Source: Omnitrophica WOR_2 bacterium GWF2_43_52
Lineage (GTDB): Bacteria; Omnitrophota; Gorgyraeia; Gygaellales; UBA12090
Assembly (NCBI GenBank): GCA_001805445.1
Contig: MHGF01000034.1
Span: forward strand, 33,929-97,928
DNA length: 64,000 nucleotides
Reading direction: 5' to 3'
The notes beneath the pieces were generated by a model. That model searched no databases. It was not told the origin of the DNA and worked only from the letters and a program-made list of their open reading frames with translations. This document shows positions 9,416 to 55,127 of the stretch, piece by piece. Position numbers and translations under genes: made by a program. The number at the start of each line of letters is the position of its first letter. Position 1 is the first letter of the stretch.

Positions 9416-9425
9416 TGTTAAATTG

Positions 9426-9797: not shown

Positions 9798-9827
9798 AAC
9801 AATTTAACCTTTTGACAATTTAGCAAT

Positions 9828-10418: not shown

Positions 10419-10458
10419 GGCTAAATTGCTAAGCCTGTTAACAGTTTGACCGTTTGTT

Positions 10459-10902: not shown

Positions 10903-10954
10903 GGTTAAAATGCTATAAGCAATTTAGCAATTGAGCAGTTTGACAGTTTAAGGC

Positions 10955-12158: not shown

Positions 12159-12281
12159 TTGTTCCTCCTTTCATAAACAGCATACGTAAGAAAAAAGAAT
12201 TCTTTGTTTACAATATAAATGGAGAGCATCCACCTCCTTTCCTAATAGTAGACAAACAGTAAAATGTGTTTTTCATTATTG

Positions 12282-13958
12282 TTACTCGCTAGCCTCTAAG
12301 GTTACCCGCATAACTTCTTCTGGAGTAGTCAGTCCGGCAAGGAGTTTTTGTAAGGCGGCATCACGAAGAGTGCTAAGCCCTTCTTTTATGGCGATCGCCC
12401 GTATATCATCGGCGGAAGACCTTTTTAAAACTGTCTCTTGTACTTTTGGAGAGACTTTCAGTATCTCGTAGATACCCAGGCGCCCTTTATATCCGCTTGA
12501 ATTACAGAGTTTACAGCCAATGCCTTTATTAAAGGTAATATTCTGCCCGATTTTATCGGCTAAGCCGATGTTCCTTAAGGCTTCCTCAGAAGGGGCATAC
12601 GATTCTTTGCATCTTTCGCAGACCCTGCGGATGAGCCGCTGGGCCATGACTCCTAAAATTGAAGAAGAAACCAGAAACGGCTCGATTCCCATATCGATGA
12701 GGCGGCTAAACGCCGAAGAAGAATCGTTGGTGTGCAGGGTTGAAAGCACGAGGTGGCCGGTCAGGGCTGCTTGTATCGCGATTTCCGCGGTTTCATGGTC
12801 GCGGATTTCTCCCAGCATTATGATATTTGGATCTTGGCGCAGGAATGAGCGCAGGGCGGCGGCAAAGGTAAGCCCTGTTTTTACATTAACCGGCACCTGG
12901 CGTATCCCGGGGAATTGGTATTCAACAGGGTCTTCGACGGTCATAATATTCACCGTTTCTTTATTAAGAATCTGTAAGGCTGAATATAAGGTGGTTGTTT
13001 TCCCACTTCCGGTTGGCCCGGTAACCAGGATGATGCCGTAAGGCGAGTGAATCATTTCCTGAAACATGCCAAGTTCCTTTGCCGGAAACCCTAGGGTTTC
13101 CAACCCCAACACAACGCCGCTTTTATCCAGGATTCTTAATACCACATTTTCCCCGTGAATGGTGGGGCATGTGGAAACGCGGAAGTCGATATCTTTGTTG
13201 CCGATTTTCATGATAATCCTGCCGTCTTGAGGAAGGCGCTTTTCCGAAATATCAAGGCCGGACATAATTTTAAAGCGCGAGATAACCGCTCCGGATAGAT
13301 CTTTCGGCAGCGGTGACTGCCTGCGCAGGAGCCCGTCGACGCGGTAGCGTATATTGAGTGTTTTTTCTTCAGGCTCGATGTGGATGTCTGATGCCTTAAG
13401 CTGGACCGCCTGCATAATCAGGTAATTGACAATCTTGATAATCGGGGCTTCTTCCCCTAACTTCTCCCCTTCCGAGAGTTTACTTCGGTCAATAGAGGCG
13501 ACGATTTCTAAAAGCGTGCCCGAGCCCCCGTAATACTGGTCCTGGGATTTTTTGATTTCCAGTTCCTGCGCCAGGACAGGCTCAACCATAAGCTTGGTAA
13601 GCCGCTGTAATTCGTCAATGATAAAGACGTTGGTAGGGTCGGCCATGGCGACGGTGAGGGTGTTTTCGATTAAAAAAACGGGCAGGAGTTTGTACTTTCG
13701 GGCGAAATCTTCCGGGATAAGCTTGAAAAGAGAGGGTTCGATAATGTAATTGGAAAGGTCAAAACGGGCTATTCCTTTTTGCTTGGAAAGAGCAAGTTCA
13801 ATTTCTTCTTGTCCCACAACGCCCTTTTTAACTAAAATCTCGCCAACTTTTTCACCGGTGAGTTTTTGCTCTTCAAGGGCCTCACGCAGCTGCTCCATGC
13901 TGATGAAGCCTTGCTCGATTAAAATCTCGCCTATTTTTTTGTAACTGATTTCAGCCAT
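12282..13958 (-). CDS. pilB: type IV pilus assembly ATPase PilB/GspE
   Basis: N-terminal GSPII_E_N domain, Walker A GPTGSGKTTTLYS, C-terminal tetracysteine motif CERCKESYAPS...CKLCNSSGYKGRLGIYE. Confidence 0.9.
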   Translation of the reverse strand: MAEISYKKIGEILIEQGFISMEQLREALEEQKLTGEKVGEILVKKGVVGQEEIELALSKQKGIARFDLSNYIIEPSLFKLIPEDFARKYKLLPVFLIENTLTVAMADPTNVFIIDELQRLTKLMVEPVLAQELEIKKSQDQYYGGSGTLLEIVASIDRSKLSEGEKLGEEAPIIKIVNYLIMQAVQLKASDIHIEPEEKTLNIRYRVDGLLRRQSPLPKDLSGAVISRFKIMSGLDISEKRLPQDGRIIMKIGNKDIDFRVSTCPTIHGENVVLRILDKSGVVLGLETLGFPAKELGMFQEMIHSPYGIILVTGPTGSGKTTTLYSALQILNKETVNIMTVEDPVEYQFPGIRQVPVNVKTGLTFAAALRSFLRQDPNIIMLGEIRDHETAEIAIQAALTGHLVLSTLHTNDSSSAFSRLIDMGIEPFLVSSSILGVMAQRLIRRVCERCKESYAPSEEALRNIGLADKIGQNITFNKGIGCKLCNSSGYKGRLGIYEILKVSPKVQETVLKRSSADDIRAIAIKEGLSTLRDAALQKLLAGLTTPEEVMRVTLEASE

Positions 13959-13977
13959 GCCAAATGTTTTTGAGAAA

Positions 13978-15243
13978 CTATTTTTGAGTGGGGTGTAATG
14001 ATTTTAAGTTTTTCTTTTCCTCGAGCACCGTTGCTTCCAAATTTTCTTTTTCCTCTTGCAGGGTTTTTTGCTTATCAACGGCTGTTTCTATTTTCTTATT
14101 GAGTTCGTTTTTCTGCTCTTCTTTGCGCAAGGCCTCTGTTTTTAGGAATTCTCTTTGCTTCGCATAGTTTTTGTCCCAAAGTTTCGGCTCTTCCTTTGCC
14201 ATATGGATGAGATCATTGGAGGTAATGATTTTGGGAGATACAAAGATGAGTAATTCCGTCTTTTCGACGATATCCTTTTTGCTTTTAAAAAGATATCCCA
14301 GATAGGGAATATCTCCAAGAAGGGGAACCTTTGACTCTCCCTTGGTAATTTTGTCTTTAATCAACCCGCCGATAATTAAGGTTTGGCCGTTACCAACAAC
14401 AACTTTGGTTGAGGCGCTGCGCGAATCAATGATGGGCACCGTATAGGTTACCGAGGTGCCGCTTGCGGTGGCGGTAAGGGAATAATCGCTGGTTTTTTCG
14501 CTGACCTCAGGGGTAAGCACCATGGTAATGTCGCCGTTTTCATTAATGGTCGGGGTAGTTTTTAAAACAATCCCTACCTCTTCAAAGTTAACCGTCCAGG
14601 TAGTTGAGGCGGTTCCGGCATCATCAATAGTTATTGTCGGTTCCGCCCAGGGAAGCCTTTGGATGATTTTGATTTCTGCTTCGCGGTTATTGACGGTAGT
14701 TACCTTGGGCGCGGAAAGGATATTGGTGTTGAGTTCGCTGGCTAATGTCTGCACTACGATATTAATGTTATCGTCAAAAATAGCAAAGGTAAAGGGAGAT
14801 TCCTGCCCCGTGGTCGTTTGAGCAGGGGGATAAAACGTCGGTTTGTAATTAATCGTCTGTTGCGGCGGCACAGGAGGGCTGCCTAAGGCAGTAGAATAGC
14901 CGAGTTTAAACCTGCCGAAGGGAATATAACCTTTATCCGCGAATGCCTTCCAGTTTACCCCCAAGGCATGCTCTTTCTGAAGCTTTACCTCAACGACCCG
15001 CGCTTCAATAAGCACTTGGGCCGGAGCCACGTCCATTTTATCCAGATAGTCAGCCACCTGCTCGATATTTTCAGGATAGTCAATCACAATGATGGAATTA
15101 GGCTCATCGCCGTATATCGCCTTTCCCTGGCTTGAGAGCAGGTTCTGTATATTATTGCTTATTTCCTGGGCGTCAAGCGGCAGGTTTCCCGCGCAGGCAA
15201 GAAGGAGTGCCGAAAGGAAAAATACAACGCCATATTTTCTCAT
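13978..15243 (-). CDS. pilQ: type IV pilus secretin PilQ with signal peptide and unusual C-terminal coiled-coil tail
   Basis: Secretin core VVVGNGQTLIIGGLIKDK...VPLLGDIPYLGYLF. N-domain motif NSIIVIDYPENIEQVADYLDKMD. C-terminal ~90 aa is a K/E-rich coiled coil. Confidence 0.85.
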   Translation of the reverse strand: MRKYGVVFFLSALLLACAGNLPLDAQEISNNIQNLLSSQGKAIYGDEPNSIIVIDYPENIEQVADYLDKMDVAPAQVLIEARVVEVKLQKEHALGVNWKAFADKGYIPFGRFKLGYSTALGSPPVPPQQTINYKPTFYPPAQTTTGQESPFTFAIFDDNINIVVQTLASELNTNILSAPKVTTVNNREAEIKIIQRLPWAEPTITIDDAGTASTTWTVNFEEVGIVLKTTPTINENGDITMVLTPEVSEKTSDYSLTATASGTSVTYTVPIIDSRSASTKVVVGNGQTLIIGGLIKDKITKGESKVPLLGDIPYLGYLFKSKKDIVEKTELLIFVSPKIITSNDLIHMAKEEPKLWDKNYAKQREFLKTEALRKEEQKNELNKKIETAVDKQKTLQEEKENLEATVLEEKKNLKSLHPTQK

Positions 15244-16739: not shown

Positions 16740-16785
16740 AGTTTTTAGGTTATCAGAAATAGAGAATCTGTATCATAATAATGGT

Positions 16786-17099
16786 TCATTCGTAAATTTT
16801 GTGGATAGTGTGCTTCACGAAACTAATACTTTTTTCGCTCAGGACGATTTTTTCACGTCAAAAAGTCTCTCACAGTTTCGGCGACTGCGGAACTCGCCCG
16901 TCAGCTTGCGCCAGGACGGGCTCAAACATCCTCGTCGTCCGCTATTACATTAGTGGCGGATTCCCGAAACTGTTCGGACTTTTTGACTAAAATCGTCATT
17001 CGCTGAAAAAACCATTAGTTTCATTGCGCACAGTAATTTTAGCGTTTCTCTTTTACTATTAAATAGTTACGATAACTGCTCCACATTATTTGCGAATGA
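16786..17099 (+). repeat. MITE-like repeat family B, copy 1 (~314 bp, 16-bp TIRs tcattcgtaaattttg / cattatttgcgaatga)
   Basis: About 90% identical to 31156-31469 in the same orientation. The interior folds as nested inverted repeats (gacgatttt/aaaatcgtc, gtcaaaaagtc/gactttttgac, cagtttcgg/ccgaaactg, gcccgtc/gacgggc). Confidence 0.65.
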
Positions 17100-31122: not shown

Positions 31123-31155
31123 GGCCCATTCTCCTTCTTTAGGTAATTTAAGGTC

Positions 31156-31469
31156 CTTTCGTGAATTTTGTGATTAGAGTAGTTTGCGAAACTAATAATT
31201 TTTTCGCTCAGGACGATTTTTTCACGTCAAAAAGCCTCTCATAGTTTCGGCGACTGCGGAACTCGCCCGTCGGCTTGCGCCAGGACGGGCTCAAACATCC
31301 TCGTCGTCCGCCACTATTGCACAGTGGCGGATACCCGAAACTATTCGGGCTTTTTGCCTAAAATCGTCATTCGCTGCAAAAACTATTAGTTTCGCTATGC
31401 ACAGTGATCTTAGTGATGCCCTTGATTATCAAACAGTTATGTTACTTGCTCCACATTATTTACGAATGA
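31156..31469 (+). repeat. MITE-like repeat family B, copy 2
   Basis: Collinear with 16786-17099, including the terminal cattatttacgaatga. Confidence 0.65.
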
Positions 31470-32639: not shown

Positions 32640-32745
32640 ATTAATTGTTTGCCCACAGTATCCTTGGCAAAATAATTCCATTTAAGCATAGTTTCCCGCA
32701 TATAATTTGATAAATTAAAAGCAATTATATGCGTACGTATATCTT
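32640..32745 (-). pseudogene. truncated remnant (N-terminal ~35 codons) of a four-helix-bundle gene paralogous to 9426..9797
   Basis: Nucleotide collinearity between 32640-32745 and 9690-9800 (ttgtttgcccacagtatccttggcaaaataattccattt.. versus ttgtctacccacggtatctttagcaaaataatcccattt..). Minus-frame translation ..LKDIRTHIIAFNLSNYMRETMLKWNYFAKDTVGKQLIK, then a stop. Confidence 0.5.
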
Positions 32746-32999
32746 TTAACTCCAGCAGTTTAGCAATTTAACCATGTAACAATTTAATTCCATCACTTTA
32801 ACTCCAGCAGTTTAACAATGTAGCCATGTAACAATTTAATTCCGTCACTTTAACTCCAGCAGTTTAACAATGTAGCCATGTAACAATTTAATTCCGTCAC
32901 TTTAACTCCAACAGTTTAACAATGTAACCATGTAACAATTTAATTCCGTCACTTTAACTCCAGCAGTTTAACAATGTAGCCATTTAACAATTTAATTAA
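32741..32999. repeat. tandem array, 5 copies of a 52-53-bp unit carrying the pilin 5' motif
   Basis: Unit ctttaactccagcagtttaacaatgtagccatgtaacaatttaattccgtca starts at 32745, 32798, 32850, 32902 and 32954. It contains catggctacattgttaaa (minus strand), identical to the start-codon region of the 10955..11479 gene. Confidence 0.8.
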
Positions 33000-34270: not shown

Positions 34271-34513
34271 ACATTAGTACATTGTTACATAAGTTTTTAA
34301 AATAGCTGTAAAAATGGGTGGCCGGGTTGTGTTTGAGCGGGGCGTACGGAAATTTCTGCGGCTTGGACTCCGCCGCAGGCGGAGCGCAGAAATTTACGCC
34401 GAGTGAGGCTTGCCGCAGGAGCAAGCCGAACGTCCCCGCGAAAACATAACCTGGACAGGACCCATTTTTACCATCATATCTATCAAAGAACTTATGTAAC
34501 AATGCATTAGGTA
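34271..34513 (-). repeat. MITE-like repeat family A, copy 3 (inverted orientation)
   Basis: Core is the reverse complement of the 4973-5150 core (gagcggggcgtacggaaatttctgcg...). TIRs cattagtacattgttacataagtt / aacttatgtaacaatgcattagg are homologous to the copy 1 TIRs. Confidence 0.6.
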
Positions 34514-39617: not shown

Positions 39618-40100
39618 TTAGCGGATAATTGTTTTAATAGCCTCGATTTCTTCGGAAGAAAGTACCTCCGCCAAATCTATTAAAATAAGCAGGCGCTCAT
39701 TTCCTAATTTCCCTATTCCCTTGATACAGCCATGCTGGCTAATGCCGCCAAGGATATGGGGAATGTCTTCAATATCATCTTGGGGAAGCCGCAGGACCTC
39801 GGTAACTTCGTCAACAATCATTCCCACAATATTCTTTTCTATCTCTACAACGACAATCCTCGTTTTTTCCGAATGAGGCTTGCCTTTAAGATTGAGCCGT
39901 TTGGCAAGGTCTATAATAGGCAGTATCCTGCCGCGCAGGTCTATAAGCCCCTCAACAAAACTGGATACTTTGGGCAGGGGGGTTATAGCGGTAAGCTTGA
40001 TAATCTCAATTACCTGGCGTATCTCTACGCCAAAATCCTCATTGCCGATAGCAAAGATGGCTAATTGCAATTCGTGGGATTCCGCGGAAGATTTCTCCAT
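39618..40100 (-). CDS. cheW: chemotaxis coupling protein CheW
   Basis: EDFGVEIRQVIEIIKL..LIDLRGRILPIIDLAKRL..GMIVDEVTEVLRL. Confidence 0.85.
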   Translation of the reverse strand: MEKSSAESHELQLAIFAIGNEDFGVEIRQVIEIIKLTAITPLPKVSSFVEGLIDLRGRILPIIDLAKRLNLKGKPHSEKTRIVVVEIEKNIVGMIVDEVTEVLRLPQDDIEDIPHILGGISQHGCIKGIGKLGNERLLILIDLAEVLSSEEIEAIKTIIR

Positions 40101-40168: not shown

Positions 40169-41914
40169 TTACAGCTTAAATTTGGTCACCATGTTTTTAA
40201 GTGATAGAGAAAGATTAGAAAGCTCCTGCGCGGACGCTGACATTTCTTGCATTGAGGCAGTCTGTTCCTCGGTTGAGGAAGAAACCTCTTCCGCGGTTGC
40301 CGCTGATTCTTTGGCAATGCTGGAGACGTCGTTAACAGCCTTAGAAACGAGCTCATTATCTTTTACCTGCTGCTGCATAGAAGTAGATATCTGATTTGCC
40401 ATGGCGTTGACTTCTTGCACAGCCTTGTTGATCTCGCCGAGGATATCGGTTATCTTGGTTACTTCGGCTCTGCCTTCCTGCACTTCTTTGGAACTTGCCT
40501 GTATGGCGCTGACTGCTTCCTGAGTCTCTGACTGAATGGATTTAATGAGTTTTCCAATCTTTCGCACTGCCTCGGCAGAGCCTTCGGCAAGCTTTCGCAC
40601 CTCTTCGGCGACAACCGCGAAGCCGCGTCCTGCTTCACCGGCTCGCGCTGCCTCGATGGCCGCGTTTAATGCCAGAAGATTGGTTTGGTCGGCGATAGAA
40701 GTAATGGTATCGGTGATTTCACCGATAGCCTGGGATTTTTCTCCCAAGCCCTGGATGACTTTCGCGGTTGAGACAACCGTGTCCGCGAGCCGGGTGATCT
40801 TTTCCACCGCTTCCTGGGCCGCGGTTTTTCCGTTCTGGGCGTAATTTGAGGCTTGGTTTACCGCGCTTGAAGTGCTTTGGGCATTAGCTACCGCTTGTTT
40901 TAAGTTTACCGATGACCTTTCCATTGCCAGGGAAGTCTGCGAGCTCTTTTCTGCCTGGGTGCTGGCGCCTTTGGCAACATTGTTGATGGCGGTAGATACT
41001 TCCTGGGTTGAGGCATTCATTTCTTCCGCAGAGCTGGATAGTTCTTGCGATGACGAGGCAACTTTATCCGCGGTTGAGCGCACCTCAAGGAATATCGCGC
41101 GGAGTGAGTCTAAAAGTTTGTTGAACACCTCGCCAAGCCTGCCGAGTTCGTCTTGAGAGCTTATCTTTATCTTATCCGCGGTCAGGTCTCCCTGGGCTAT
41201 TCGTTCCGCGGTAGCAACTACCTGTTGCAAAGGAAGCGTAATTTGGCGGATGATTAACACGCAGATGATGAGGATTAAGACAATGTCTCCAAGGCCAATC
41301 ATAATCAAAAGGAAGGTCCTCCATCTGATGGTAGCTGTCCCGCGCTGCTCATCAACTTTGTTTCTTTCGATGGACATAGAAACCACCTTGTCAACGCCGA
41401 CGCGGTGCTCTTCGTATTTTTCATTGAGAAAAGTTTTGGCTAATTCCCGCGCCTTATCCTTTTCACCCTTTTGAATGAGAGGAATGAATTCATCAAAGAA
41501 TTTCTTATGGAATTCAATAGCCGGATTATACGAAAGGCTGATGATCGCGTCTCTGAGTTCTTTATCCGTTGCCAGATCTCCAAAACTTTCAGAGATCCAG
41601 TACTCATGGCGGGTGTCGTATTCGCTTTTTAAGAATTTGGCATTTTCAATGAGCTTCTCAATCTTTACGGAATTTGTTTCATCAAGAAGCTGAAGGCTGA
41701 TGAGATAGGTTTCAATGATATATTCAGGTGGAGGAAGGACATCCGCGATAAGGTCTTTTCCCTGCACAATCCTCTTATAGAGGGGGCCGTTGACCTTTAC
41801 CGTGTTCAATGTCCAATACGACATTATCCCAAAGATAAAAAACCCTAGTATTGATACCCCAGCCAGCAGCATCAGGCGCAGCTTTATGCTAAGGCCTTTG
41901 ATTACATTCATCAT
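40169..41914 (-). CDS. methyl-accepting chemotaxis protein (TM, HAMP, MA domain)
   Basis: [25 protein letters not shown]; signalling hairpin [33 protein letters not shown]. Confidence 0.9.
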
Positions 41915-42233: not shown

Positions 42234-43013
42234 TTGAAGGTATGCTCACATAAAAGGAATATGAAGAAATCTGCGAAGGATTCTTTTGTACGCTTGTTTT
42301 GTTCAATAAAGTTCGTTGTTACGCTCTTAGCGTTGATTATTCTCACGATTATTAGCGGTACGCTCATACCTCAAGGGGCTTTGGCGCAGGCGTATAGTGC
42401 CCGGTATGGAGAGCGGTTCTATCGCGTTCTTTCTTTTCTGCGGTTAACCGATGTGTATCATTCCTGGTGGTTTATCGGTTTGGTATTTTTTCTGTGGCTG
42501 AGCCTTTTAACCTGTACCCTGCGCCAAGTAAAAACATGGAAAAAATCACTGGCTTCCCTTATTGCTCATCTGGGGCTTTTAATAATTATCGTCGGAAGCC
42601 TCGTTACCTGTATTTTCGGCCACACGGGTTTCTTGGTAGTATATAAAGGCCATTCCCAGGATACCTTTATAACCGCGGGCAACACCTTAAAGCCGTTAGG
42701 TTTTAGAATATACCTTGATGATTTTGAGATTGAATGGTATGATGCTACCCGTAGCCATATAAAAGATTATAGGAGTAAAGCGGTAATCCTTGATGGGAGC
42801 GGCAGGCCTGTTTTTGCTAAAATAATAAAGGTGAATCATCCCTTGAGCTTTAAGGGGTATACCTTATGCCAGGCAAGTTATGATGAGAAGCATGGCCTTT
42901 GGACAGGGCTGCAGGTATCCAAGGACCCAGGGGTACAGATAGTATACGCGGGCTTCATTTTTCTTAATATAGGGGTAATCTTTATCGTCAGCGGCAAATC
43001 AAAGCACAAGTGA
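42234..43013 (+). CDS. ccsB: ResB/CcsB-like cytochrome c biogenesis protein (short form, system II)
   Basis: Membrane protein directly upstream of ccsA; 259 aa with TM-loop-TM topology. Alternative start at MKKSAKD (42261). Confidence 0.55.
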   Translation: MKVCSHKRNMKKSAKDSFVRLFCSIKFVVTLLALIILTIISGTLIPQGALAQAYSARYGERFYRVLSFLRLTDVYHSWWFIGLVFFLWLSLLTCTLRQVKTWKKSLASLIAHLGLLIIIVGSLVTCIFGHTGFLVVYKGHSQDTFITAGNTLKPLGFRIYLDDFEIEWYDATRSHIKDYRSKAVILDGSGRPVFAKIIKVNHPLSFKGYTLCQASYDEKHGLWTGLQVSKDPGVQIVYAGFIFLNIGVIFIVSGKSKHK

Positions 43014-43274
43014 GGTAGTAACATGTTAAAAGCGCCTGCCTGCCGCAGGCAGGGATATCTGGGTATCAGGGAATTGGGATTTTCCCGCTATAGTCTTTGA
43101 TGAGGCGGGATCCCGCCTTGGGCGGGAGGGTATCGGGAAATCGGGAGATTAGGGAAAACCCGATATTTTGTTCCCAATATCCTGATATCCTAATTACCAA
43201 ATCCTAATCTCCCGATCACCTAATCCCCGCATTTAACATGCTCAATTACATATATTATACGAGGAGTAAAGGCC

Positions 43275-44060
43275 ATGAATTTCACTTTGATTAATGTGGT
43301 AATGGGCGCGTATCTTTTTGCCGGCATAGGCTTTTTTTTATACACAAACTTCCAAAAAATAATTTTTAAAAGTTTCGCAATCGCTTTATTATCAATAGGT
43401 TTTGCTTCTCATACCGGATTCCTCATTCAACGCTGGATAAGCGCGGGCCATTTTCCTATTATCGGCTTATATGAATCCCTGCTTTTTTTTAGCTGGTCAA
43501 CGGTGTGTGTGTTTTTCATCCTCTTAAGAAATTTCAAGCTTGAGTTTTTGGCTATGCCCGTGAGTATCGGCGCCGCCCTGATTGTAGGATATACCTCAAT
43601 TCTTGACAAAACCCTAAAGCCTCTTATGCCGGCATTAAAGAGTAATTGGATTGTTATCCATGTGGTAAGCTATTTTCTCGGCTATGCTTCGGTCGCGATT
43701 TCTTGTATTGTCAGTATCAAATACCTTGTCAATGCCCGTAAAGCTTCTCCTGATTCGTTGACAGCTTTAGATACGCTTAGTTATCGTCTCATCGCCTTTG
43801 CCTTTCCTTTTTTGACTATCGGGCTTACTACCGGAGCGGTATGGGCAAAGACCGCCTGGGGCAGCTATTGGAGCTGGGACCCTAAAGAGACCTGGGCGCT
43901 GATTACTTGGTGCGTCTACGCGGCGTATTTACATTTGCGCCTGCTTAAAAACTGGCATGGCCGTCGAGGCGCCTATATTAATATCATAGGGTTTTTTTGC
44001 GTTCTTTTTACCTTTATCGGGGTAAATTATCTTTTTAAAGGCTTGCACAGTTATTTATAG
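43275..44060 (+). CDS. ccsA: cytochrome c assembly protein CcsA/ResC
   Basis: W-rich haem-handling motif WAKTAWGSYWSWDPKETWAL plus conserved His residues. Confidence 0.8.
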   Translation: MNFTLINVVMGAYLFAGIGFFLYTNFQKIIFKSFAIALLSIGFASHTGFLIQRWISAGHFPIIGLYESLLFFSWSTVCVFFILLRNFKLEFLAMPVSIGAALIVGYTSILDKTLKPLMPALKSNWIVIHVVSYFLGYASVAISCIVSIKYLVNARKASPDSLTALDTLSYRLIAFAFPFLTIGLTTGAVWAKTAWGSYWSWDPKETWALITWCVYAAYLHLRLLKNWHGRRGAYINIIGFFCVLFTFIGVNYLFKGLHSYL

Positions 44061-44062
44061 CT

Positions 44063-44120
44063 TTCAGCCTTCAGCCTTCAGCTTTCAGCTGATTGCTGAT
44101 AGCTGATAGCTGAAGGCTTA
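44063..44120 (+). terminator. GC-rich hairpin after ccsA (gccttcagc...gctgaaggc) containing repeated TCAGCTGA units
   Basis: agctttcagccttcagccttcagctttcagctgattgctgatagctgatagctgaaggc. The 22-mer ctttcagctgattgctgatagc recurs at 47507-47528. Confidence 0.4.
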
Positions 44121-44125
44121 TTTCT

Positions 44126-46765
44126 ATGCGTCTTAGGACAAAATTCCTTCTTACGTTTCTGGCCATTTCCATCATTCCCCTTATTTTCATTAGTGCCTTA
44201 AGCTTTTCTTACGCGAAAAAGTCGTTAGAAGCGACTGCCTTAAAAGGCCTGAATATTGTGGCTCTGGCCAAGAAGGCCGAAGTCCTGGAGTATTTAAGCG
44301 GTAAAAAAGGCAGGACCATTGATTTTGCCTCCGACGGTTTTATCAGAGATCAGGCAGAAGCTATCTTTAAGAGCGCCGCCGCAGAGAAAACACGCTTAAG
44401 CAGGTCTTTAAATGAGCATCTTAGGGTTAATAAAAAACCTCTCGATGAGGAAATTTTAGAAATCCGCGTCCTTGATATAACCGGTAAGATTATCGGCGAT
44501 AGCGAGGGCGAGGCCCTACTAGGGCTTGCCACAGGCAAGACGCAAGCCTATTTTCTTGAAGGGCAGCATACGGCCTATATTCAGGATAGCGGTATTTTTA
44601 TGCATTGGGGCGCGGAAGAAGAAATTATTGCCATTGGCACGCCTTTAAAAAGCAGAACGACGAATACACTCATCGGAGTCTTGGTTAATTTTTATACCTT
44701 AGCCAATGTTCAGGATGTCCTTCTGGGAATAAAAGGCCACCGCTGGGATAAACAGAGTATTGTCGGCGGCCAAGAAACCACCATGGATATATTCTTGGTG
44801 AATCAGCAAGGCCTGCTTTTAACCCCTTCCAAAAAGCTCGATACCTATAGGCCGTTAAAAACGAAAATAATCACCGAGCCTGTTCTCCAGGCAACGGCAG
44901 ATTTTGGCGTTCTTAATAGATCGTGGGTAGATATGCGGGGAAACAATGTATTGGGCGCATCGGTGCTTTTAGATATTGAGGAGGACTGGAAGTGGCTTTT
45001 AATCATAGAGCAAGACCAAAAAGAGGTACTTTTGCCGGTGTATGAATTAAGGAATTTTTTGGCAACGGCAGCGGTCATTATATGGCTTTTTGTAGGGTTC
45101 ATCGCGGTAGCAATAGCTGAATCAATTACGGCGCCGGTACGCAAGCTTACCAGGGTTGCCGATAGGATTAGCAGGGGTGAAGCAGGATTACGCATAGAGA
45201 ATACGTCAAAGGATGAAATCGGGACACTCGCCTCTTCCTTTAACCGGATGGTAGAGATCCGCCAAAGTGTCGAAGACGAGTTGAGGCTGGCTAAGACGCG
45301 CATCAGCGAAGAAAAAACCAAGTGCGAGCTTGTCCTGGCGAGTATCGGCGAGGGTATGATTGTCATTAGCCAAGATGCCAAGGTGATGATGATGAATAGC
45401 GAAGCCGAGCATATGTTCGGCTGGGAGCTGATTGAGTTGGTAGGAAAAAATTTTGGCGAAGCGCTTATTTGTGAAGATGAAAAAGGCAACCCGGTTCCCG
45501 AAGCAGAGAGAATTATGGCCCGTCCGCTTGAGGATAATAAAACTATCCATGTCAACGCGTACTATTATCGAAGAGATGCGACGAGGTTTCCTGTTTCCGT
45601 GACGGCCTCCCCTATCCTTTTTGAAAGCAAGGTCATCGGGGCAATCGGGATATTCCGCGATATTACCAAAGAGAAAGAAATAGACAGAATGAAAACTGAT
45701 TTTATCTCGACGGTTTCGCATGAAATCCGCACACCCCTGACGACGATACGCGAGGGGGTTTCTCAGGCGCTTGACGGCCTTTTGGGAGGTATTACCGAAA
45801 AACAAAGAGAAATATTTTCCATTGTCCTTGAGGATTCCGACCGTCTCAAGCGTATTATTGACAGCCTCTTGGATATAGCGAAAATAGAAGCCGGGAAAGT
45901 AGAATTAAAAAAAGAGTTAGTCGATATTGCCGCCGTAGCTAAAACCGTAGCCGCTGCCTTCGGCCTGCAGGCGCAAGAGAAGAAACTGCAAATCCGCACG
46001 CATTTTTCTAAGCCAAAAATCAAGGCATACGTTGATAGAGATAGGATTAACCAGGTTTTTATAAATCTGGTGGGAAATGCCCTTAAATTCACGGAAAATG
46101 GCAGTATTACTATTTCAGTAGAGGATACCGCCGCGTCGATAGAATGTTCGGTTGCCGATACGGGGAAAGGCATTGCCAAGGAGGACCAGCCGAAATTATT
46201 CAGTAAATTTCAGCAGTTTGGCCGGGCGCACGGCCCGGGAGAAAAAGGAACCGGCCTGGGGCTTTCCATTTCTAAGGGCATCGTTGAACTGCATAAAGGA
46301 AAGATTTGGGCTGAGTCCCAACCGCGTAAAGGGACAAAAATCAGTTTCACGATTCCGCGCTATAGCCAAGAACAGCTCTTTAAAGAATATGTGGCAGGCG
46401 GGATAAAAAAGGCTATGCGCCAGAACAATGTTTTATCTCTGGTGCTTTTTAGCCTTTGGGATGTATCGGATACGCCCTTAAGCGATAGTGACGCGCTGGC
46501 CGATAATTTAACGGATTTTATCAGAAAAAAGATCCATTGGGACTCTGAGGCCATTGTGGAAAGCGGCAATCGTATTCTTATGCTTTTTCCCGGGGTTACA
46601 AAAGAAAACGCGCGGGTGATCGCCGGAAAGATCCGTAACATATTCGTCCACTACACGGCACGGCAAGGCGGGGAAAAACATATAACAATTTCTTTTAAAG
46701 TCATTACCTATCCTCAAGACGGCTCGCACGAAGAAGGCTTGGTCTTGGGGATATTGAATATATAA
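44126..46765 (+). CDS. sensor histidine kinase with periplasmic Cache-like domain, HAMP, PAS, HisKA, HATPase and a ~130-aa C-terminal domain of unknown type
   Basis: H-box SHEIRTPLTTI; G-box GTGLGLSISKGIVELHKG. The N-terminal sensor region is paralogous to that of the MCP at 50694..52799 (KKGRTIDFASDGFIRD versus [16 protein letters not shown]). Confidence 0.85.
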   Translation: MRLRTKFLLTFLAISIIPLIFISALSFSYAKKSLEATALKGLNIVALAKKAEVLEYLSGKKGRTIDFASDGFIRDQAEAIFKSAAAEKTRLSRSLNEHLRVNKKPLDEEILEIRVLDITGKIIGDSEGEALLGLATGKTQAYFLEGQHTAYIQDSGIFMHWGAEEEIIAIGTPLKSRTTNTLIGVLVNFYTLANVQDVLLGIKGHRWDKQSIVGGQETTMDIFLVNQQGLLLTPSKKLDTYRPLKTKIITEPVLQATADFGVLNRSWVDMRGNNVLGASVLLDIEEDWKWLLIIEQDQKEVLLPVYELRNFLATAAVIIWLFVGFIAVAIAESITAPVRKLTRVADRISRGEAGLRIENTSKDEIGTLASSFNRMVEIRQSVEDELRLAKTRISEEKTKCELVLASIGEGMIVISQDAKVMMMNSEAEHMFGWELIELVGKNFGEALICEDEKGNPVPEAERIMARPLEDNKTIHVNAYYYRRDATRFPVSVTASPILFESKVIGAIGIFRDITKEKEIDRMKTDFISTVSHEIRTPLTTIREGVSQALDGLLGGITEKQREIFSIVLEDSDRLKRIIDSLLDIAKIEAGKVELKKELVDIAAVAKTVAAAFGLQAQEKKLQIRTHFSKPKIKAYVDRDRINQVFINLVGNALKFTENGSITISVEDTAASIECSVADTGKGIAKEDQPKLFSKFQQFGRAHGPGEKGTGLGLSISKGIVELHKGKIWAESQPRKGTKISFTIPRYSQEQLFKEYVAGGIKKAMRQNNVLSLVLFSLWDVSDTPLSDSDALADNLTDFIRKKIHWDSEAIVESGNRILMLFPGVTKENARVIAGKIRNIFVHYTARQGGEKHITISFKVITYPQDGSHEEGLVLGILNI

Positions 46766-46900
46766 AGAGCAAAGGTAAACCCTTAAGAAGAATGTTGTTT
46801 GTGAAGTGTAGAGTGAAAAAAAGTCAAGGGTTTCCTTCGCGCGTGTAACGCAAGGTGTGTGTGAGAAATTTGCAGGCGCCACCGCCTGCGTTCTGTGGTT

Positions 46901-47049
46901 ACTAGTACACTGTAACAAAAGTTTTTAACTCTTCCCCTCCCTTGATGGGAGGGGTTAGGGGAGGGAGATGCCCGACTAATATCACCCCCACCTATCCTCC
47001 CCCATTAAGGGGGAGGAAATTCAATAACTTATGTTATACTGTACTAGTC
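46901..47049. repeat. small element bounded by family-A-type TIRs (actagtacactgtaaca / tgttatactgtactagt) with a G/C-rich hairpin core
   Basis: The TIRs are read directly from the sequence. Core ctcttcccctcccttgatgggaggggttaggggagggag...cccccattaagggggagg. Confidence 0.4.
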
Positions 47050-47064
47050 ATTCTAAGGAGGTAG

Positions 47065-47454
47065 ATGCGTATGGCAAAGAAAAAGATTTTAGTTGCTGAT
47101 GATGACCCTAATATCGTGAAGCTGATTAAGGCGCGGCTGGAAGCGAATAATTACGAAGTAATTACTGCCGCTGATGGCGAGGAATGCCTGCAAAAGATTT
47201 CCGCGGAAAAACCTGATTTGTTGATTTTAGATGTCCTGATGCCTAAGGCCGACGGCTATAATGTCCTTATCGGCATGAATGAAATCAAGGCCCTTACCGG
47301 AGAGATGCCCATTGTTCCGGTTATTGTCTTGACCGCTTTAAGCGACCCCAGGGTTAAAAATATGATTGAAAAGGAAGAAATCAAAGATTATGTGGTTAAG
47401 CCTTTTGAATCCGAAGAACTCTTATCAAAAATAAGAAAGGCTTTGGGAGAATAA
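47065..47454 (+). CDS. single-domain response regulator (CheY/DivK-like)
   Basis: KKILVADDDPNIVKLI...LLILDVLMPKADGYNVL...VKPF; 129 aa. Confidence 0.85.
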   Translation: MRMAKKKILVADDDPNIVKLIKARLEANNYEVITAADGEECLQKISAEKPDLLILDVLMPKADGYNVLIGMNEIKALTGEMPIVPVIVLTALSDPRVKNMIEKEEIKDYVVKPFESEELLSKIRKALGE

Positions 47455-47628
47455 CGTATAGCTTTCTCCGCCGCAGGCGGATACGCCTACGGCGTAAGCT
47501 TTCTGCTTTCAGCTGATTGCTGAGAGCTTTTTATGCGCGGTTTTACCTGTAGTAGCCATGTGTCGGCAGTACGCCTTGCAGGGGGCAAAACCAAACTGCG
47601 GAAATTGGGATAATAAGGATAAAAAACA

Positions 47629-48009
47629 GTGCCAAAGAAAATACTGCTGGCGGATGATGACCCGAATATTTTGAAGCTGGTAAAGCTGCGGTTAGAGGCA
47701 AATGGCTATGAAGTAGTTACCGCCAGCGATGGAGAAGAATGTATGGCGAAGGTTTTTTCAGAGAAGCCGCAGCTTATCCTTTTGGACCTTATGATGCCTA
47801 AGGTTGACGGTTATGCCGTGCTCGTGGGCTTAAAAGAAATGCATGGTCTCCAAGAGGGAATTCCCGATATCCCGGTGGTCGTGCTTACGGCTATGGGAGA
47901 TTCCCGGGTTAAGGATTTGGTGCAAAAGGAACATATTGCTGACTATGTCCTCAAACCGTTTAATTCCCAGGATCTATTGGCAAAGGTTAAAAAGGCCTTA
48001 GGCGAGTGA
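47629..48009 (+). CDS. single-domain response regulator, tandem paralog of the 47065..47454 product
   Basis: KKILLADDDPNILKLV...LILLDLMMPKVDGYAVL...LKPF. Confidence 0.85.
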   Translation: MPKKILLADDDPNILKLVKLRLEANGYEVVTASDGEECMAKVFSEKPQLILLDLMMPKVDGYAVLVGLKEMHGLQEGIPDIPVVVLTAMGDSRVKDLVQKEHIADYVLKPFNSQDLLAKVKKALGE

Positions 48010-48204
48010 GTTTATCCCGACGCTTCAAAACTGCGGCCTTCAGGCCGCGGATGGAGTTCCGACGTTTTCGGTCGGAACAAGTCGGTCGGGATTCCGCCCC
48101 GAAGGGGCAAGAAGAAAAGGAACTTCAGGCTTTAGCCCGGGTGGGCTCCATTTTATTATTTATTTATTACCAAGTAGTTACAAAAATATTTTTTGAAAAA
48201 ATAC

Positions 48205-48233
48205 TTGACAAAGCTATAGATTGAAGCTATATT
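48205..48233 (+). promoter_or_regulatory. sigma70-like promoter TTGACA-17-TATATT with AT-rich upstream region
   Basis: ttgaca at 48205-48210, tatatt at 48228-48233. About 230 nt upstream of the 48461 gene. Confidence 0.4.
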
Positions 48234-48460
48234 TAAACCTAACTTTAGTTAATAATTGTTCGTTGAAATTTTGTTTAATTGTGTCTACAATGAACCTCTT
48301 TACCTTGGAGTTTTAAAAAAAGGCTAAAAAAGAAAGCTTCAAAAGGTAAAGCTATCTTATCCCTTATCTATAACATATAATACAAATATCTATAATTTAT
48401 AGAAAGGGATAGGATAATAGTTAGGCGCAGAGCTTGCGTGGGCAGGTGTTCACGTAGGAT

Positions 48461-49852
48461 GTGCCTTATATAAAGGAAAGGAGAGCGAAAAAGATGAAAC
48501 GGAAAAGACAGAGTTGTCTTTTGGCAATGTTGCTTGCTCTTGCGGTAGTAATGGTTACGCAGGCCCATGCAGGAGCTACCAGTGAAGGGTTTTTTATTCA
48601 AAATTATCTTCCCAAGGAATTAAAAGAAAAGCTTAAAGTAAGCCTCGAAATGCGCTATCGGCTTGAGGCGCGCGATGATTTTGATTTTAGCGAAACTGCC
48701 GATAGGACTACGAACGAAACCGATACCTTCCATCTCTTAAGAACCCGCCTTATGCTTGATGCCACTATTTCAGAATCTCTGCGCGGCTTTGTGCAGCTGC
48801 AGGATTCCCGTATTTTTGGCACTACTCCGGCAAATAGATGGAGCATTGCTTTTCGTGATGAGTTTGACGTGCGCCAGGCGTATATTGATTATAAGATAAA
48901 GCAAATTTCAGACGCGCTCACCCTGCGCTTAGGAAGGCAGGAGCTTTCCTACGGTGACCAGCGGTTAGTCGGAGGTTTTGACTGGTCAAATGTGGCGCAG
49001 TCTTTTGACGCGGCAAAGGTTATCTTCGCGCAAAAGCAGTTTACCATTGAAGGTTTTCTTTCGGAAAAAGTAAATATCGACCTTGCCAATCCTAATAATT
49101 GGTATGATGATAATGAAGGGTTTCACGGAGTGTACACCAGCTATAAAGGTTTAGATAAGCATGTTCTTGACATGTATTATCTTTATCGGAATAGCTCGGA
49201 ACCGGTTTCCTTTGGCCCCAGCGGGTCAAGGAAATTAAACGAGTTAACTTCAGGTATCAGATTAAAAGGCGATAAGGTGAATAATTTTGATTATACCTTG
49301 GAATACGCCTATCAGTCTGGTGAATTCGGCTCTCAGGATATTAACGCCTATGCCCTTATCCTGCAGGCAGGCTATACCTTGAGTGATATTCCCTGGACGC
49401 CGCGCCTTGGCCTGGAATGGGATTTTGCCACTGGCGATGAGGATTCAACCGACAACGAAAGAAACACCTTTGATAATCTCTGGCCTACGAACCACCTCTT
49501 CTATGGTTATATTGACTTCGTGAGCCTGCAGAATATCAATGCCTATAACCTCAGGTTAAATCTTAGCCCTACCAAGAAACTCAGCCTGCAGGGAGATTAT
49601 TGGCTGTTTTATCTTGACGAGACAACCGACGCGTTATATAATGCGGGAAGAGCCCAGCTAAGAGCGGCTAATCAAAGGGTTGGCAGCGGCTACGTGGGTT
49701 CTGAGGTGGATTTCCTGCTTAAATACGCCTTCAATAAAAATATCAATCTCTTAAGCGGCTATTCCCATTTCTTTGCCGGGACATTCTTAGCCCGCACCGG
49801 CGCCAATGACGACGCGGATTTCTTCTATCTGCAGAGTCTTTTGAAATTTTAA
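48461..49852 (+). CDS. outer-membrane beta-barrel protein (alginate-export/porin-like), C-terminal Phe
   Basis: Signal peptide MKRKRQSCLLAMLLALAVVMVTQAHA, beta-strand-rich, ends ...FFYLQSLLKF. Confidence 0.5.
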   Translation: MPYIKERRAKKMKRKRQSCLLAMLLALAVVMVTQAHAGATSEGFFIQNYLPKELKEKLKVSLEMRYRLEARDDFDFSETADRTTNETDTFHLLRTRLMLDATISESLRGFVQLQDSRIFGTTPANRWSIAFRDEFDVRQAYIDYKIKQISDALTLRLGRQELSYGDQRLVGGFDWSNVAQSFDAAKVIFAQKQFTIEGFLSEKVNIDLANPNNWYDDNEGFHGVYTSYKGLDKHVLDMYYLYRNSSEPVSFGPSGSRKLNELTSGIRLKGDKVNNFDYTLEYAYQSGEFGSQDINAYALILQAGYTLSDIPWTPRLGLEWDFATGDEDSTDNERNTFDNLWPTNHLFYGYIDFVSLQNINAYNLRLNLSPTKKLSLQGDYWLFYLDETTDALYNAGRAQLRAANQRVGSGYVGSEVDFLLKYAFNKNINLLSGYSHFFAGTFLARTGANDDADFFYLQSLLKF

Positions 49853-49867
49853 CTTAAGGGTCAGTTC

Positions 49868-49901
49868 GTCCTTCCTGTTTCTTCAATGAAACAGGAAGGA
49901 C
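49868..49901. other. perfect 14-bp stem hairpin (gtccttcctgtttc / gaaacaggaaggac) between the porin and haem-sensor genes
   Basis: Read directly from the sequence. It is followed on the plus strand by an A-run rather than a U-run, so it is not a canonical terminator. Confidence 0.4.
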
Positions 49902-49940
49902 GAAAAAAGATAAAAAACAGATGCGCGAAAGGAGGAAACA

Positions 49941-50573
49941 ATGTTAAAAAAGGTGAGCGTAACAATGGTTTTATTTGCCTTCATCATAGGTTGTGTAGGC
50001 ATTCTTCCGGCAATGGCTGCCGAGAAGATAGATGTGCGTAAGGTGGCCGAGGATTTAGCCCAATACCTGGTTTCTACCCGCCGTATGATTTCGCAAATGG
50101 TAGATGTTATTAATACCCATGGGGCAAAGGTTGAAGAACCTCTTCCTAAGGATGCTCCTTATGCCTTTAAAGGGGTTATTCCCGCGTATATGGGAAGAAT
50201 TATCGGCGACGATTTCTTTAAAAATAGCGGTATCCGGGTAAAACAGACCACCTTAGGTAAGGGCGAATACGGTGTACGTAACACCTATAACACGGCCGAT
50301 GACTGGGAAAAAGAGGTGTTAACCCGTTTCTATGAGCCATCATATCCTAAAGGAAAAGGCTATGGTGAAGAAGCTGACTGGGAAGGCAAAAAAGTGTACC
50401 GTTATATGCTTCCCCTCTATATTGAAAAGAGCTGCCTGAAATGCCATGGGGACCCTGCCACCTCTCCTACCGGAGACGGAAAGGATATGGCGGGAAAGCC
50501 TATGGAGAATTATCTGGAAGGCGAAATACGAGGCGGGATTAGCGTTATTATACCTTTAGAAGAGAAAACCTAA
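49941..50573 (+). CDS. periplasmic c-type haem protein, DUF3365 (Tll0287-like) sensor domain
   Basis: Signal peptide; CXXCH as SCLKCHGDP near the C-terminus, preceded by VYRYMLPLY. Immediately upstream of the MCP gene. Confidence 0.6.
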   Translation: MLKKVSVTMVLFAFIIGCVGILPAMAAEKIDVRKVAEDLAQYLVSTRRMISQMVDVINTHGAKVEEPLPKDAPYAFKGVIPAYMGRIIGDDFFKNSGIRVKQTTLGKGEYGVRNTYNTADDWEKEVLTRFYEPSYPKGKGYGEEADWEGKKVYRYMLPLYIEKSCLKCHGDPATSPTGDGKDMAGKPMENYLEGEIRGGISVIIPLEEKT

Positions 50574-50693: not shown

Positions 50694-52799
50694 ATGGGGA
50701 AAAAATCATATACCAGTATACGGGTGAAGCTGTTGAGGTGGTTTATCCTTATCTCTATAGGGCCTCTATCGTTAGCTAGTATCCTTATCTACCTTAACAG
50801 CCGTACCATAGTAACCGAAAGAATCGCCAGCGAATTAAATATCTTGACCAAAGGTATTGAAGGAAAGGTAGCGGCATTTATCGAAGGTAAAAAAGGCAGG
50901 ACCCTTGATTTCTGTTCAGATGGTGTGGTCAAAGACGGCCTTACCTATTACGATCCTGATGATTCTGCCGTAGCGACTCTGGTCAAAAATACCAATAATC
51001 ATTTAATTAAAAACAAGATGTCCTTGGATAGTTATTTAGTGGATCTTATGATAATTAATCTCAAGGGAAAAGTCGTTTTTGCCACGAATGATAAGCTTCT
51101 GGGAAGGGATGAATCAAAGAAGGAATATTTTATTAATATCAGTAAATATTTTAAAGATAAGGCAATGCAGGAGAAACTAAAAAAAGATCCTACAGTCTTA
51201 GTCTATGCTACGGATTTTTATATGGCAGAAGATTTAGGCAAGCCGGTATTAGCCATAAGCAATGTGGTTACCGCGCGGGCAACATCGCTTCCTTTGGGGG
51301 TATTGGTTAACCGCTATAAGGGCGATATGCTTAATCAGGTGCTTGCGGAAGAAGGCGATACCTTAGGAACGGGCGGAAAGTCCTATGTGGTAAATAAGGA
51401 TGGTTTTCTATTGACCATACCTAAATTTATGGAAGGAAAAGGCGATCAGGTTATTCTTAAGGAACAGCTTAAGAGTTTTCCCATCATTCAGGCGCAGAAA
51501 AAGTCAGTAGGAACAGACGCGAAAACGTATCAGGATTCTACCGGAAAGACTGTTTTGGGCTCGGCTATGATTGATAAGGCAAAAGGCTGGATTATTCTGG
51601 CAGAACGGGACGTTAAGGTGGCATTCGCCCCTTTAAACAGCTTAGTAAGTCTCTTATGTATCATAGGTATTATAGCGCTGGTGATTGTAATCTTATTGTC
51701 AATCTTTATCTCAGGACGGATTGCCAGCCCTATTCTAAAACTTTTAGGTATTTCTGAGGTGATTACCAAGGGAGACTTAACGACAGAGGTTAACGTTCAC
51801 AGTAATGATGAAATAGGCCGTTTAGCGGATTCTTTTAAAAGTATGGTTGGCGCTATGCACGATATGGTTTCTCAGGCGCTGAGTACCGCGGATAAAGTTG
51901 CTTCGTCAGCACAAGAGCTATCCAGCTCTTCGGAAGAAATGAATGCCTCTACCCAGGAGGTATCCACGGCGATTCAGAATGTGGCAAAAGGCGCGATAAC
52001 CCAGGCTGAACGCGCGGCCCAGACTTCAGAGGCAATGGAGCAGGCATCGGTAACCTTAAAAGAAGTGGTCGCGAATGCCCAGAGTACGACAAACGCGGTA
52101 AATCAGGCAAGCGCGCGCGTGCAAAAGGGTAAGGCCACTGCTCAGGAAGCAGTGAATAAGATTACCGGTTTGACCGATACGGTTGTCTCAACCGCGAAAG
52201 TCATCCAGGGCTTAGGAGAAAAATCCCAGGCTATCGGTGAAATCACTGATACTATCACTTCTATTGCCGACCAGACCAATCTCCTGGCATTAAACGCGGC
52301 CATAGAGGCGGCGCGTGCCGGTGAAGCAGGCCGCGGCTTCGCGGTTGTTGCCGAAGAGGTGCGAAAACTTGCCGAAGGTTCTGCCGAGGCAGTGCGAAAG
52401 ATTGGAAAACTCATTAAGTCCATTCAGTCAGAGACTCAGGAAGCAGTTAGCGCGATACAGGCAAGTTCCAAAGAGGTGCAGGAAGGGCAGGCTGAGGTAG
52501 CCAAGATAACCGATATCCTCGGTGAGATCAACAAGGCAGTGCAGGAAGTCAACGCCATGGCTGGCCAGATTACGACTTTAATTCAGCAGCAGGTTAAGGC
52601 TAACGAACAGGTTACTAAGGCAGTCAATGATGTTTCGGTAATTGCCAAAGAATCAGCGGCAACCGCGGAAGAGGTTTCTTCCTCAACCGAGGAACAGACT
52701 GCCTCTATGCAGGAGATGTCCGCCTCAGCCCAGGAGCTTTCCAACCTCTCGATGAGCCTGAAGAATTTGGTTGGAAGATTCAGGGTGCGCGGAAAATAA
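50694..52799 (+). CDS. methyl-accepting chemotaxis protein with periplasmic Cache-like sensor domain
   Basis: TM-sensor-TM-HAMP-MA architecture. The C-terminal ~300 aa are nearly identical to the 40169..41914 product. Confidence 0.9.
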
Positions 52800-52914: not shown

Positions 52915-52990
52915 GCCTCTAGTACACAGTAAAGATAGTTTTTATGAAAAATATACTGTGCACTAGTAGAACGTGACATTACTTATTGCA
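52915..52990. repeat. TIR-only remnant of MITE family A (ctagtacacagt ... actgtgcactagtagaacgtgacattacttattg)
   Basis: Palindromic pair read directly from the sequence. The right half matches the copy 1 left TIR (actagtacaccgtgacataaattactg). Confidence 0.35.
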
Positions 52991-53125: not shown

Positions 53126-53689
53126 ATGAGATATTATCCTATTCTTTTAGATTTAAAAGGCAAAGAATGTGTCGTCGTTGGGGGGGGGAGCGTAGCGCAA
53201 AGAAAGGTTTATGCTCTGCTTAAAGCCGGCGCGCGCGTTAAGGTAATCAGCCCTAAACTTACGAAAGGCCTAAGGGAGCTAAAAAAAAAGAAGAAGATTG
53301 CTTGCCTATCTTCAACCTACACCAAAGGTTCTCTTCAGGATGCTTTCTTAGTTATTGCCGCAACCAATAGCCAAGTAACCAATAAACAAGTAGCGCTTGA
53401 TGCGGCATCGCGCGGCAGTTTGATTAACGTGGTCGACGCCTCTGTTTTAAGTAATTTTATTGTTCCTTCAGTAATAGCAAAAAAAGATTTGATTATTAGT
53501 ATCTCGACAAGCGGTAAAGCTCCTTGTTTAAGTAAAAGAATACGCAAAGATTTAGAAAAGCTTTTGGTTCCGGAATATGCCATCTTCTTGAGCCGGTTAA
53601 AGGAAATCCGCGGTAATATAAAGTTGCGATGCCTCAACGCAAAGCAAAAGGCGCAAGTATTACATAGCCTGGTTGAGGCAAAGGTATAA
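53126..53689 (+). CDS. sirC: precorrin-2 dehydrogenase / sirohydrochlorin ferrochelatase (SirC/CysG-N-like)
   Basis: YPILLDLKGKECVVVGGGSVAQRKVYALLKAGARVKVISP Rossmann N-terminus; 187 aa. Confidence 0.65.
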   Translation: MRYYPILLDLKGKECVVVGGGSVAQRKVYALLKAGARVKVISPKLTKGLRELKKKKKIACLSSTYTKGSLQDAFLVIAATNSQVTNKQVALDAASRGSLINVVDASVLSNFIVPSVIAKKDLIISISTSGKAPCLSKRIRKDLEKLLVPEYAIFLSRLKEIRGNIKLRCLNAKQKAQVLHSLVEAKV

Positions 53690-54904: not shown

Positions 54905-55127
54905 AAGTGCACTACTGTCATAGATTTCTCTTAGGCAGGGCGGAGGTCCTGTCAAGGTTATGTCTTCGCAGGGACGTTCGGCTTGCTCCTGCGGCAATCC
55001 TCACTCGGCGTAAATTTTCGCGCCCGCCACTAAAAGCGATGGCGGGTCCAAGCCGCAAAAATTTCCGTACGCCCCGCTCACACATAACTTTGCCACCCCC
55101 GCTTTCGAAGGTAGTGACTAGTTCAAT
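54905..55127 (+). repeat. MITE-like repeat family A, copy 2
   Basis: Core gggcggaggtcctgtcaaggttatgtcttcgcagggacg...gcaaaaatttccgtacgccccgctcacacataac, collinear with copy 1. TIRs partly degenerate. Confidence 0.6.

Follow-up and report, generated by a model that had tools for sequence, protein, structure and literature searches.

In Campylobacter jejuni the chemoreceptors Tlp2, Tlp3 and Tlp4 combine dissimilar dCache sensors with one and the same signalling domain (PMC9769880). Tlp repeats in Campylobacter bound an element of about 92 kb that occurs in either orientation, for which inversion by homologous recombination has been proposed (PMC6433261). A related arrangement is found in an uncultured Candidatus Omnitrophota bacterium, of the species represented by the metagenome-assembled genomes (MAGs) GWF2_43_52 and GWC2_44_8. 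The window analysed here is a stretch of 64,000 nucleotides of the former (contig MHGF01000034.1, positions 33,929 to 97,928), in which two divergent genes for methyl-accepting chemotaxis proteins, MCP1 and MCP2, with their sensors inside and their signalling halves outside, bracket a segment of 11 kb. The arrangement is already known from Campylobacter; what differs is the phylum, the far greater divergence of the repeats and the lack of a validated inversion. The signalling modules of MCP1 and MCP2 are probably kept alike by purifying selection together with episodic, old and mosaic gene conversion, and there is no convincing evidence that the 11-kb segment inverts.

The group A Tlps of Campylobacter (Tlp2/3/4/11) have dissimilar periplasmic sensors (about 30% identity), a C-terminal signalling half in common and inverted chromosomal repeats, and the Omnitrophota locus resembles them in all three. 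As in Tlp-type elements, receptor genes with similar C-terminal halves lie inverted around a conserved gene set, but the repeats fall short of the complete or near-complete identity across hundreds of bases expected of such elements: the arms are 82-86% identical, and no perfect match in them exceeds 65 nt. The Campylobacter signalling halves differ little or not at all, and finished genomes show either orientation, with confirmation by PCR, whereas the inverted state of the 11-kb segment in this uncultured Omnitrophota bacterium rests on two possibly chimeric contigs. A second precedent is the tufA/tufB pair of Salmonella, inverted duplicates that undergo concerted evolution by RecA-dependent gene conversion; the whole genes are about 99% identical, conversion is frequent and ongoing, and repeats of this kind can occasionally yield an inversion. 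As with tufA/tufB, non-reciprocal exchange keeps the inverted copies described here closer to each other than to their counterparts in other species, although the shared part is a single domain, the conversion is old and mosaic, and outside that domain the two genes are unrelated. The locus also fits the modular evolution of chemoreceptors by sensor swapping, with a 4HB-like sensor on one receptor, a dCache-like sensor on the other, and a dCache-like module on a neighbouring kinase as well, yet it goes beyond domain shuffling alone in showing silent-site evidence of homogenisation. The Campylobacter pattern of chemoreceptor paralogs with one signalling module and recombining chromosomal repeats is thus extended to an uncultured candidate phylum, in a case where silent sites tell selection apart from conversion.

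As defined by open reading frame (ORF) calls and Pfam, MCP1 (40169..41914, minus strand) is a chemoreceptor of 581 amino acids with a small helical sensor, HAMP (8.8e-14, 52 bits) and MCPsignal (2.6e-41, 141.8 bits), and MCP2 (50694..52799, plus strand) is one of 701 amino acids with a dCache-like sensor, HAMP (2.8e-11, 44 bits) and MCPsignal (1.5e-40, 139.3 bits). Both proteins exceed the Pfam cut-offs for MCPsignal (PF00015, 34.6 bits) and HAMP (25 bits), and in both a transmembrane sensor region and HAMP precede the signalling domain, as expected for members of PF00015. The sensors are unrelated, as the initial annotation had proposed; that of MCP1 has a weak match to 4HB_MCP_1, below the cut-off, and that of MCP2 a weak match to dCache_1. 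The signalling module extends over about 308 residues after HAMP, which agrees, in length only, with a 44-heptad class. Presumably both receptors dock to the same CheA/CheW machinery. Genes of the che type are present in the window, which holds no MCP other than these two.

A repeat search and BLASTN place the arms of the inverted repeat in the signalling halves, with arm A at 40188..41074 in MCP1, arm B at 51885..52771 in MCP2 and 10.8 kb between their inner ends. The initial annotation was therefore right about an inverted repeat of about 0.9 kb with its arms some 11 kb apart. The repeat consists of the blocks 40188-40837/52122-52771 (650 nt, 86%) and 40949-41074/51885-52010 (126 nt, 85%), and the BLASTN alignment of the arms covers 872 nt at 84.2% identity with 6 gaps. 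Over the C-terminal 303 amino acids, identity is 86.5% for the proteins and 82.0% for the nucleotides; the protein value is below the roughly 90% first given for some 300 residues. Complete identity over about 100 residues was correctly noted: 104 residues ending in ...SKEVQEG (MCP1 amino acids 378-481) are the same in both proteins and are encoded with 20 silent nucleotide differences. This hairpin-core tract (40472..40783 on the minus strand in MCP1, 52176..52487 on the plus strand in MCP2) is, by silent divergence, same-codon counts and bootstrap support, the strongest signal of past gene conversion within the repeat. The longest exact run in the whole repeat, the 65 nt mentioned above, lies in the C-arm (40254..40318, minus strand, in MCP1; 52641..52705, plus strand, in MCP2). 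It holds 21 consecutive codons identical at silent sites, is longer than expected (permutation P = 0.011), and may represent a younger, small conversion patch; in scaffold L093 the crossover falls within this run, and several assemblies break at it.

A comparison with related Omnitrophota that have the same gene order supports an older, non-reciprocal homogenisation that took place over evolutionary time. Synonymous (dS) and nonsynonymous (dN) divergence were counted by the Nei-Gojobori method. Across the shared 301-333 codons, MCP1 and MCP2 differ with dS 0.70-0.76 and dN 0.09-0.14, and 85 silent codon differences are scattered among 262 identical residues. The core is more alike than its surroundings, with a dS of 0.36 overall (0.24-0.54 in 30-codon windows) and 22% of the silent-capable codons differing, as against 41-42% in the arms (chi-square P = 0.003). 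Between the window paralogs and the MCP2 of the related species L013, core dS is 2.68 and 1.82, although values above about 1.5 are saturated and imprecise. In all three comparisons the dN of the core is about 0.01 (0.005-0.014 between the window and L013), so the amino-acid identity of the core reflects purifying selection. At identical degenerate core residues, by contrast, the window paralogs use the same codon in 77 of 96 cases and the orthologs in 43 of 94 (Fisher P = 1e-6). This excess of identity at silent sites, beyond codon usage, argues for gene conversion as well as selection. Neighbouring genes of the window and L013, taken as a control, have a dS from 1.2 to saturated and the same codon at 44-61% of positions. 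In a second related genome, E14, the paralog cores have 65-70% of their codons the same, compared with 41-47% across clades. The last event in the window core appears to be old, as its dS of about 0.36 is similar to the divergence between the related species L014 and L015. Codon bias common to one genome was considered as a cause of the silent-site likeness and was rejected on the basis of the codon-usage expectation and of a control with a second pair of paralogs, the response regulators RR1 and RR2. Conversion confined to the L013 lineage was likewise rejected as a cause of the tree described next, since the paralog core dS is far under the divergence between species (at least 1.2).

The relatives come from a scan of species-representative genomes, which yielded L013, L015 (with L020, from the same genome) and, in part, L014 and L053. 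In L013 and L015 the order MCP1(-), ResB, CcsA, histidine kinase, response regulator, AlgE, Tll0287, MCP2(+) is kept; the histidine kinases of the relatives are only 55-65% identical to that of the window. The comparison of segment orientation in related genomes that the initial annotation had suggested returns the same order in these two, and the conserved gene order establishes that MCP1 and MCP2 each have positional orthologs across species. Neighbour-joining trees nevertheless group the two window paralogs with each other, with bootstrap values of 95% when the whole domain is used and 100% when the core is used, and unite E14 MCP1/3, L015 MCP2 and L014 MCP2 at 100%, while the grouping expected from orthology, window MCP1 with E14 MCP1/3, receives 0%. 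In the N-arm (MCP1 amino acids 279-368) window MCP2 groups with L013 MCP2 at 92%. The different trees of the N-arm and the core point to a mosaic history. Paralogs that are closer than positional orthologs, an excess of identity at synonymous sites and mosaic segments are the marks of concerted evolution, and all are present here. A protein search with the signalling domain found nothing closer than 66%, and the window's own proteins were also missing among its matches.

These observations are most readily explained if MCP1 and MCP2 pair two different sensor modules with one kind of cytoplasmic signalling module, whose later history would combine selection and exchange. Purifying selection on the hairpin tip, which is almost invariant across several Omnitrophota species, would account for most of the amino-acid identity, and episodic non-reciprocal recombination between the inverted copies for the excess silent-site identity. 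The whole domain was probably homogenised independently in the lineage of the window and in that of E14/L014. For the core (MCP1 amino acids ~369-483), and probably the C-arm too, a further round would have followed in the window lineage once it had separated from the L013 species, with the N-arm still following orthology. In this history the repeat would be a possible but poor substrate for a RecA-type crossover. Several points weigh against this explanation. Part of the silent-site argument uses saturated dS values; the trees were built by a simple method (p-distances, 500 bootstraps); the comparison covers three related lineages only; two of the related MCP1 sequences are truncated at contig ends; and the E14 MCP1/3 sequence is a composite of two contigs. 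Of the paralogs in this genome the comparison covers only MCP1 and MCP2. In addition, two public contigs (L093/L120 and L099) carry one of the junctions predicted for an inverted segment, that of sensor 2 with the MCP1 tail and CheW.

These contigs raise the possibility that the 11-kb segment is a naturally invertible element, flipped in part of the population by homologous crossover within the signalling-domain repeats, although this seems unlikely. The geometry is suitable, as the initial annotation had pointed out in calling the repeat an inversion substrate: with the sensors on the inner side, both ORFs would survive such a crossover intact, and only the distal tails and flanks would be swapped. 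The larger contig, L093/L120 (19.4 kb, ERZ28564302), runs from ResB to Tll0287, an intact chimera of 698 amino acids, CheW, porin, PilZ, GGDEF and CheR. Its chimera consists of MCP2 nt 1-2012 and the last 150 nt of MCP1, with the switch inside the 65-nt perfect run, and a private in-frame deletion of 30 nt in the MCP1 sensor (L120:836-866, window 41530-41559) replaces 11 residues with D. L099, a contig of 3 kb from another sample and another strain, has Tll0287, a chimera and CheW, and switches elsewhere, at MCP2 nt 1590-1611, where the window copies have only 20 nt in common. In the E14 species the locus is rearranged, a third MCP having been placed behind MCP2, and the Tlp-bounded elements of Campylobacter provide a precedent (PMC6433261).

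The survey of junctions in public assemblies reached through exact-protein look-ups, which yielded these two recombinant contigs, otherwise speaks against inversion. The reciprocal junction, of sensor 1 with the MCP2 tail and sirC, was not found by exact look-up among about 15 billion proteins, in which the predicted reciprocal chimeras of 584 and 583 amino acids were both missing, and it occurs in none of 24 sirC-bearing contigs. The parental junction next to CheW is present in at least 12 contigs and that next to sirC in at least 20, and several contigs cover both sides in the orientation of the window. A metagenome scan for loci with both receptors, anchored on a Tll0287 alignment, gave at least one relevant locus, L102. 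In a further survey, of Tll0287-bearing contigs, only 1 of 24 is recombinant. The right-hand junction, with MCP2 followed by sirC and hemA, is kept in L013. As a substrate the repeat is weak in practice, given arms of only about 84% identity with so short a perfect match, and divergence of 14-18% is expected to depress homologous recombination controlled by RecA and mismatch repair by orders of magnitude.

The assemblies themselves suggest another origin for the recombinant contigs, which are probably chimeras that arose by mis-joins in the assembly graph. Two independent MEGAHIT contigs (L128 and L130) run exactly 59 nt into the 65-nt tract and end there, as expected of an unresolved graph branch at k=59, and a UBA MAG breaks there too (P0009 reaches MCP1 nt 1662, and L097 begins at nt 1638). 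As these breaks fall in the same tract, the crossover of L093 sits exactly where a mis-traversal of the graph is expected. A further protein, P0006 (712 amino acids, SRR3989339), has the N-terminal two-thirds of window MCP2 and the C-terminal third of an L015-clade MCP2, and is an inter-species chimera through the conserved core, most probably produced during assembly. In metagenome assemblies, conserved receptor cores are places where contigs are especially prone to break or to be joined into chimeras, which calls for caution with the gene order of MAGs and with chimeric receptor proteins nearby. Were populations polymorphic for an 11-kb inversion by crossover in chemoreceptor signalling domains after all, which is doubtful, the inversion would give each sensor module the C-terminal tail and the operon surroundings of the other receptor, bringing sensor 2 together with CheW and the porin and sensor 1 with the haem-synthesis genes, and the same exchanges would drive the mosaic homogenisation at silent sites. 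A switch of the Hin, Gin or shufflon type, operated by a site-specific invertase, can be set aside: a Pfam scan of the ten genes between and including CheW and MCP2, among them every gene of the segment, revealed no recombinase, and the repeats are coding-sequence paralogy.

It is very improbable that the likeness of the modules involves no conversion at all, and goes back to an ancient duplication of the signalling module kept only by purifying selection for CheA/CheW docking. The hairpin tip is nearly invariant in amino acids across species, with the low dN between the window and L013 given above and the same core also in L016, and the amino-acid identity alone needs no conversion. The silent sites do not agree with this notion, as the same codon is used at 80% of core positions between the paralogs and at 46-52% between species, when window codon usage alone predicts 36%. 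Nor do the trees, in which paralogs are grouped by lineage at 95-100% bootstrap, contrary to positional orthology. RR1 and RR2, paralogs of the same genome, have no such excess and use the same codon in only 41% of cases.

A recent conversion that left a perfect tract of at least 250 bp, as read by the initial annotation from the 104-residue identity and the almost identical antisense translations, is refuted, since 40536-40787 and the reverse complement of 52172-52423 differ by 19 mismatches in 252 nt (92.5% identity), no perfect run exceeds 65 nt, and the core dS is hundreds of times the 0.05-0.1% by which strains of the same species differ. A recent tract with near-zero silent divergence is thus not seen. 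Conversion as such is upheld by silent sites and trees as an old and mosaic process. The nucleotide alignment proposed as a check reveals protein-level identity with scattered synonymous differences, the pattern named beforehand as speaking against a recent event. The error can be traced to two antisense ORFs, one of 102 amino acids inside MCP1 (40536..40844, plus strand) and one of 93 amino acids inside MCP2 (52142..52423, minus strand). Of the 19 mismatches, 18 fall on the third position of sense codons, which is also the third position of the antisense frame, and both translations are unchanged because the silent differences fall on position 3 of both frames. The antisense translations, first described as identical for 84 codons, agree at 83 of 84, with one M/I difference. 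Identical sense and antisense translations therefore do not prove identical DNA when the frames share third positions. The antisense ORFs were rejected as genes, having no Pfam match and a conservation that the coincidence of frames explains; they are by-products, open frames opposite the Ala/Glu-rich codons of a coiled coil.

The segment between the receptors (42234..50573, plus strand) has, by Pfam, the gene content first assigned to it: a ResB-like protein, CcsA, a histidine kinase with a dCache-like sensor, HAMP and PAS, two single-domain CheY-like response regulators, an AlgE-type porin and a Tll0287-like haem protein, in an order that is the same in the related L013, L014, L015 and L053. 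The window locus matches contig DMEX01000076.1 (GCA_003451255.1), and the same proteins are found in the two MAGs named above. MCP1 opens a run of MCP, CheW and porin genes, and the CheW gene directly downstream of it (39618..40100, minus strand; Pfam CheW 3.2e-38) was the left-flank marker for the typing of junctions. MCP2 lies directly downstream of the gene for the Tll0287-like haem protein and is followed by a sirohaem-synthase-like gene, sirC (53126..53689, plus strand, from the Pfam listing), the right-flank marker. The sensor and HAMP region of the histidine kinase (44126-46765) and that of MCP2 (50694-51870) are a paralogous dCache-like module (28% amino-acid identity, E 1e-34), with a patch of 50 nt that is 78% identical (44300-44349 / 50886-50935), indicating that one sensor type is wired to two outputs within the locus. 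Short AGCTTTCAGC-type periodic or palindromic spacers are found at 44059-44118, after CcsA, and at 47497-47528, between the two response regulators, the latter of which folds into a terminator-like hairpin; an Rfam scan of the window gave no match. In the spacer after MCP2, outside the repeat, L117, L118 and L119, contigs from different assemblies, start 170-200 nt upstream of sirC (window ~52924-52955).

Two related loci have additional features. In the E14 genome the third MCP has a type-1 sensor, lies directly downstream of MCP2 (L015:11036-12271, L020:3-662) and is nearly identical to E14 MCP1 from HAMP onward; these repeats are again sites of contig breaks. L020 overlaps the right end of L015 by ~141 nt, and the porin may accordingly sit on the MCP2 side in the E14 species. 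L016 encodes two MCPs (9170-10945, 12144-14333) with unrelated sensors, one of them with a CxxCH haem motif, and signalling domains that are 65% identical and cluster together in trees. The clustering of signalling modules by genome may be general in the phylum.

Another unusual join is seen in L008/L114 (JGI Ga0103681_1000089), where the first response regulator is joined not to the kinase but to TPR, PqqD and radical-SAM genes. Identity to the window begins at 46900, a sister contig of that sample stops at 46979, and the overlap of the two (46900-46979) contains a G/C-rich hairpin element (46935-46965) found nowhere else in the window. Either the rearrangement is genuine or this is one more join made in assembly. 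Further repeats lie elsewhere in the window. A dispersed intergenic element of ~190 nt without an Rfam match occurs in three copies, one of them inverted, that are 85-97% identical (4951-5139, 34316-34462, 54916-55106); the third copy lies in the hemA-hemC spacer, which is ~115 nt shorter in other strains. A direct repeat of ~320 nt (81-90%) is found at 16783-17099 and 31152-31469, 14.4 kb apart. An intergenic tandem repeat at 32745-32997, inside which scaffold L120 ends, has a 52-nt unit in 4.9 copies with 95% matches, and a 47-nt A/T-rich motif occurs four times (9383, 10386, 11447, 32565), apparently beside gene starts.

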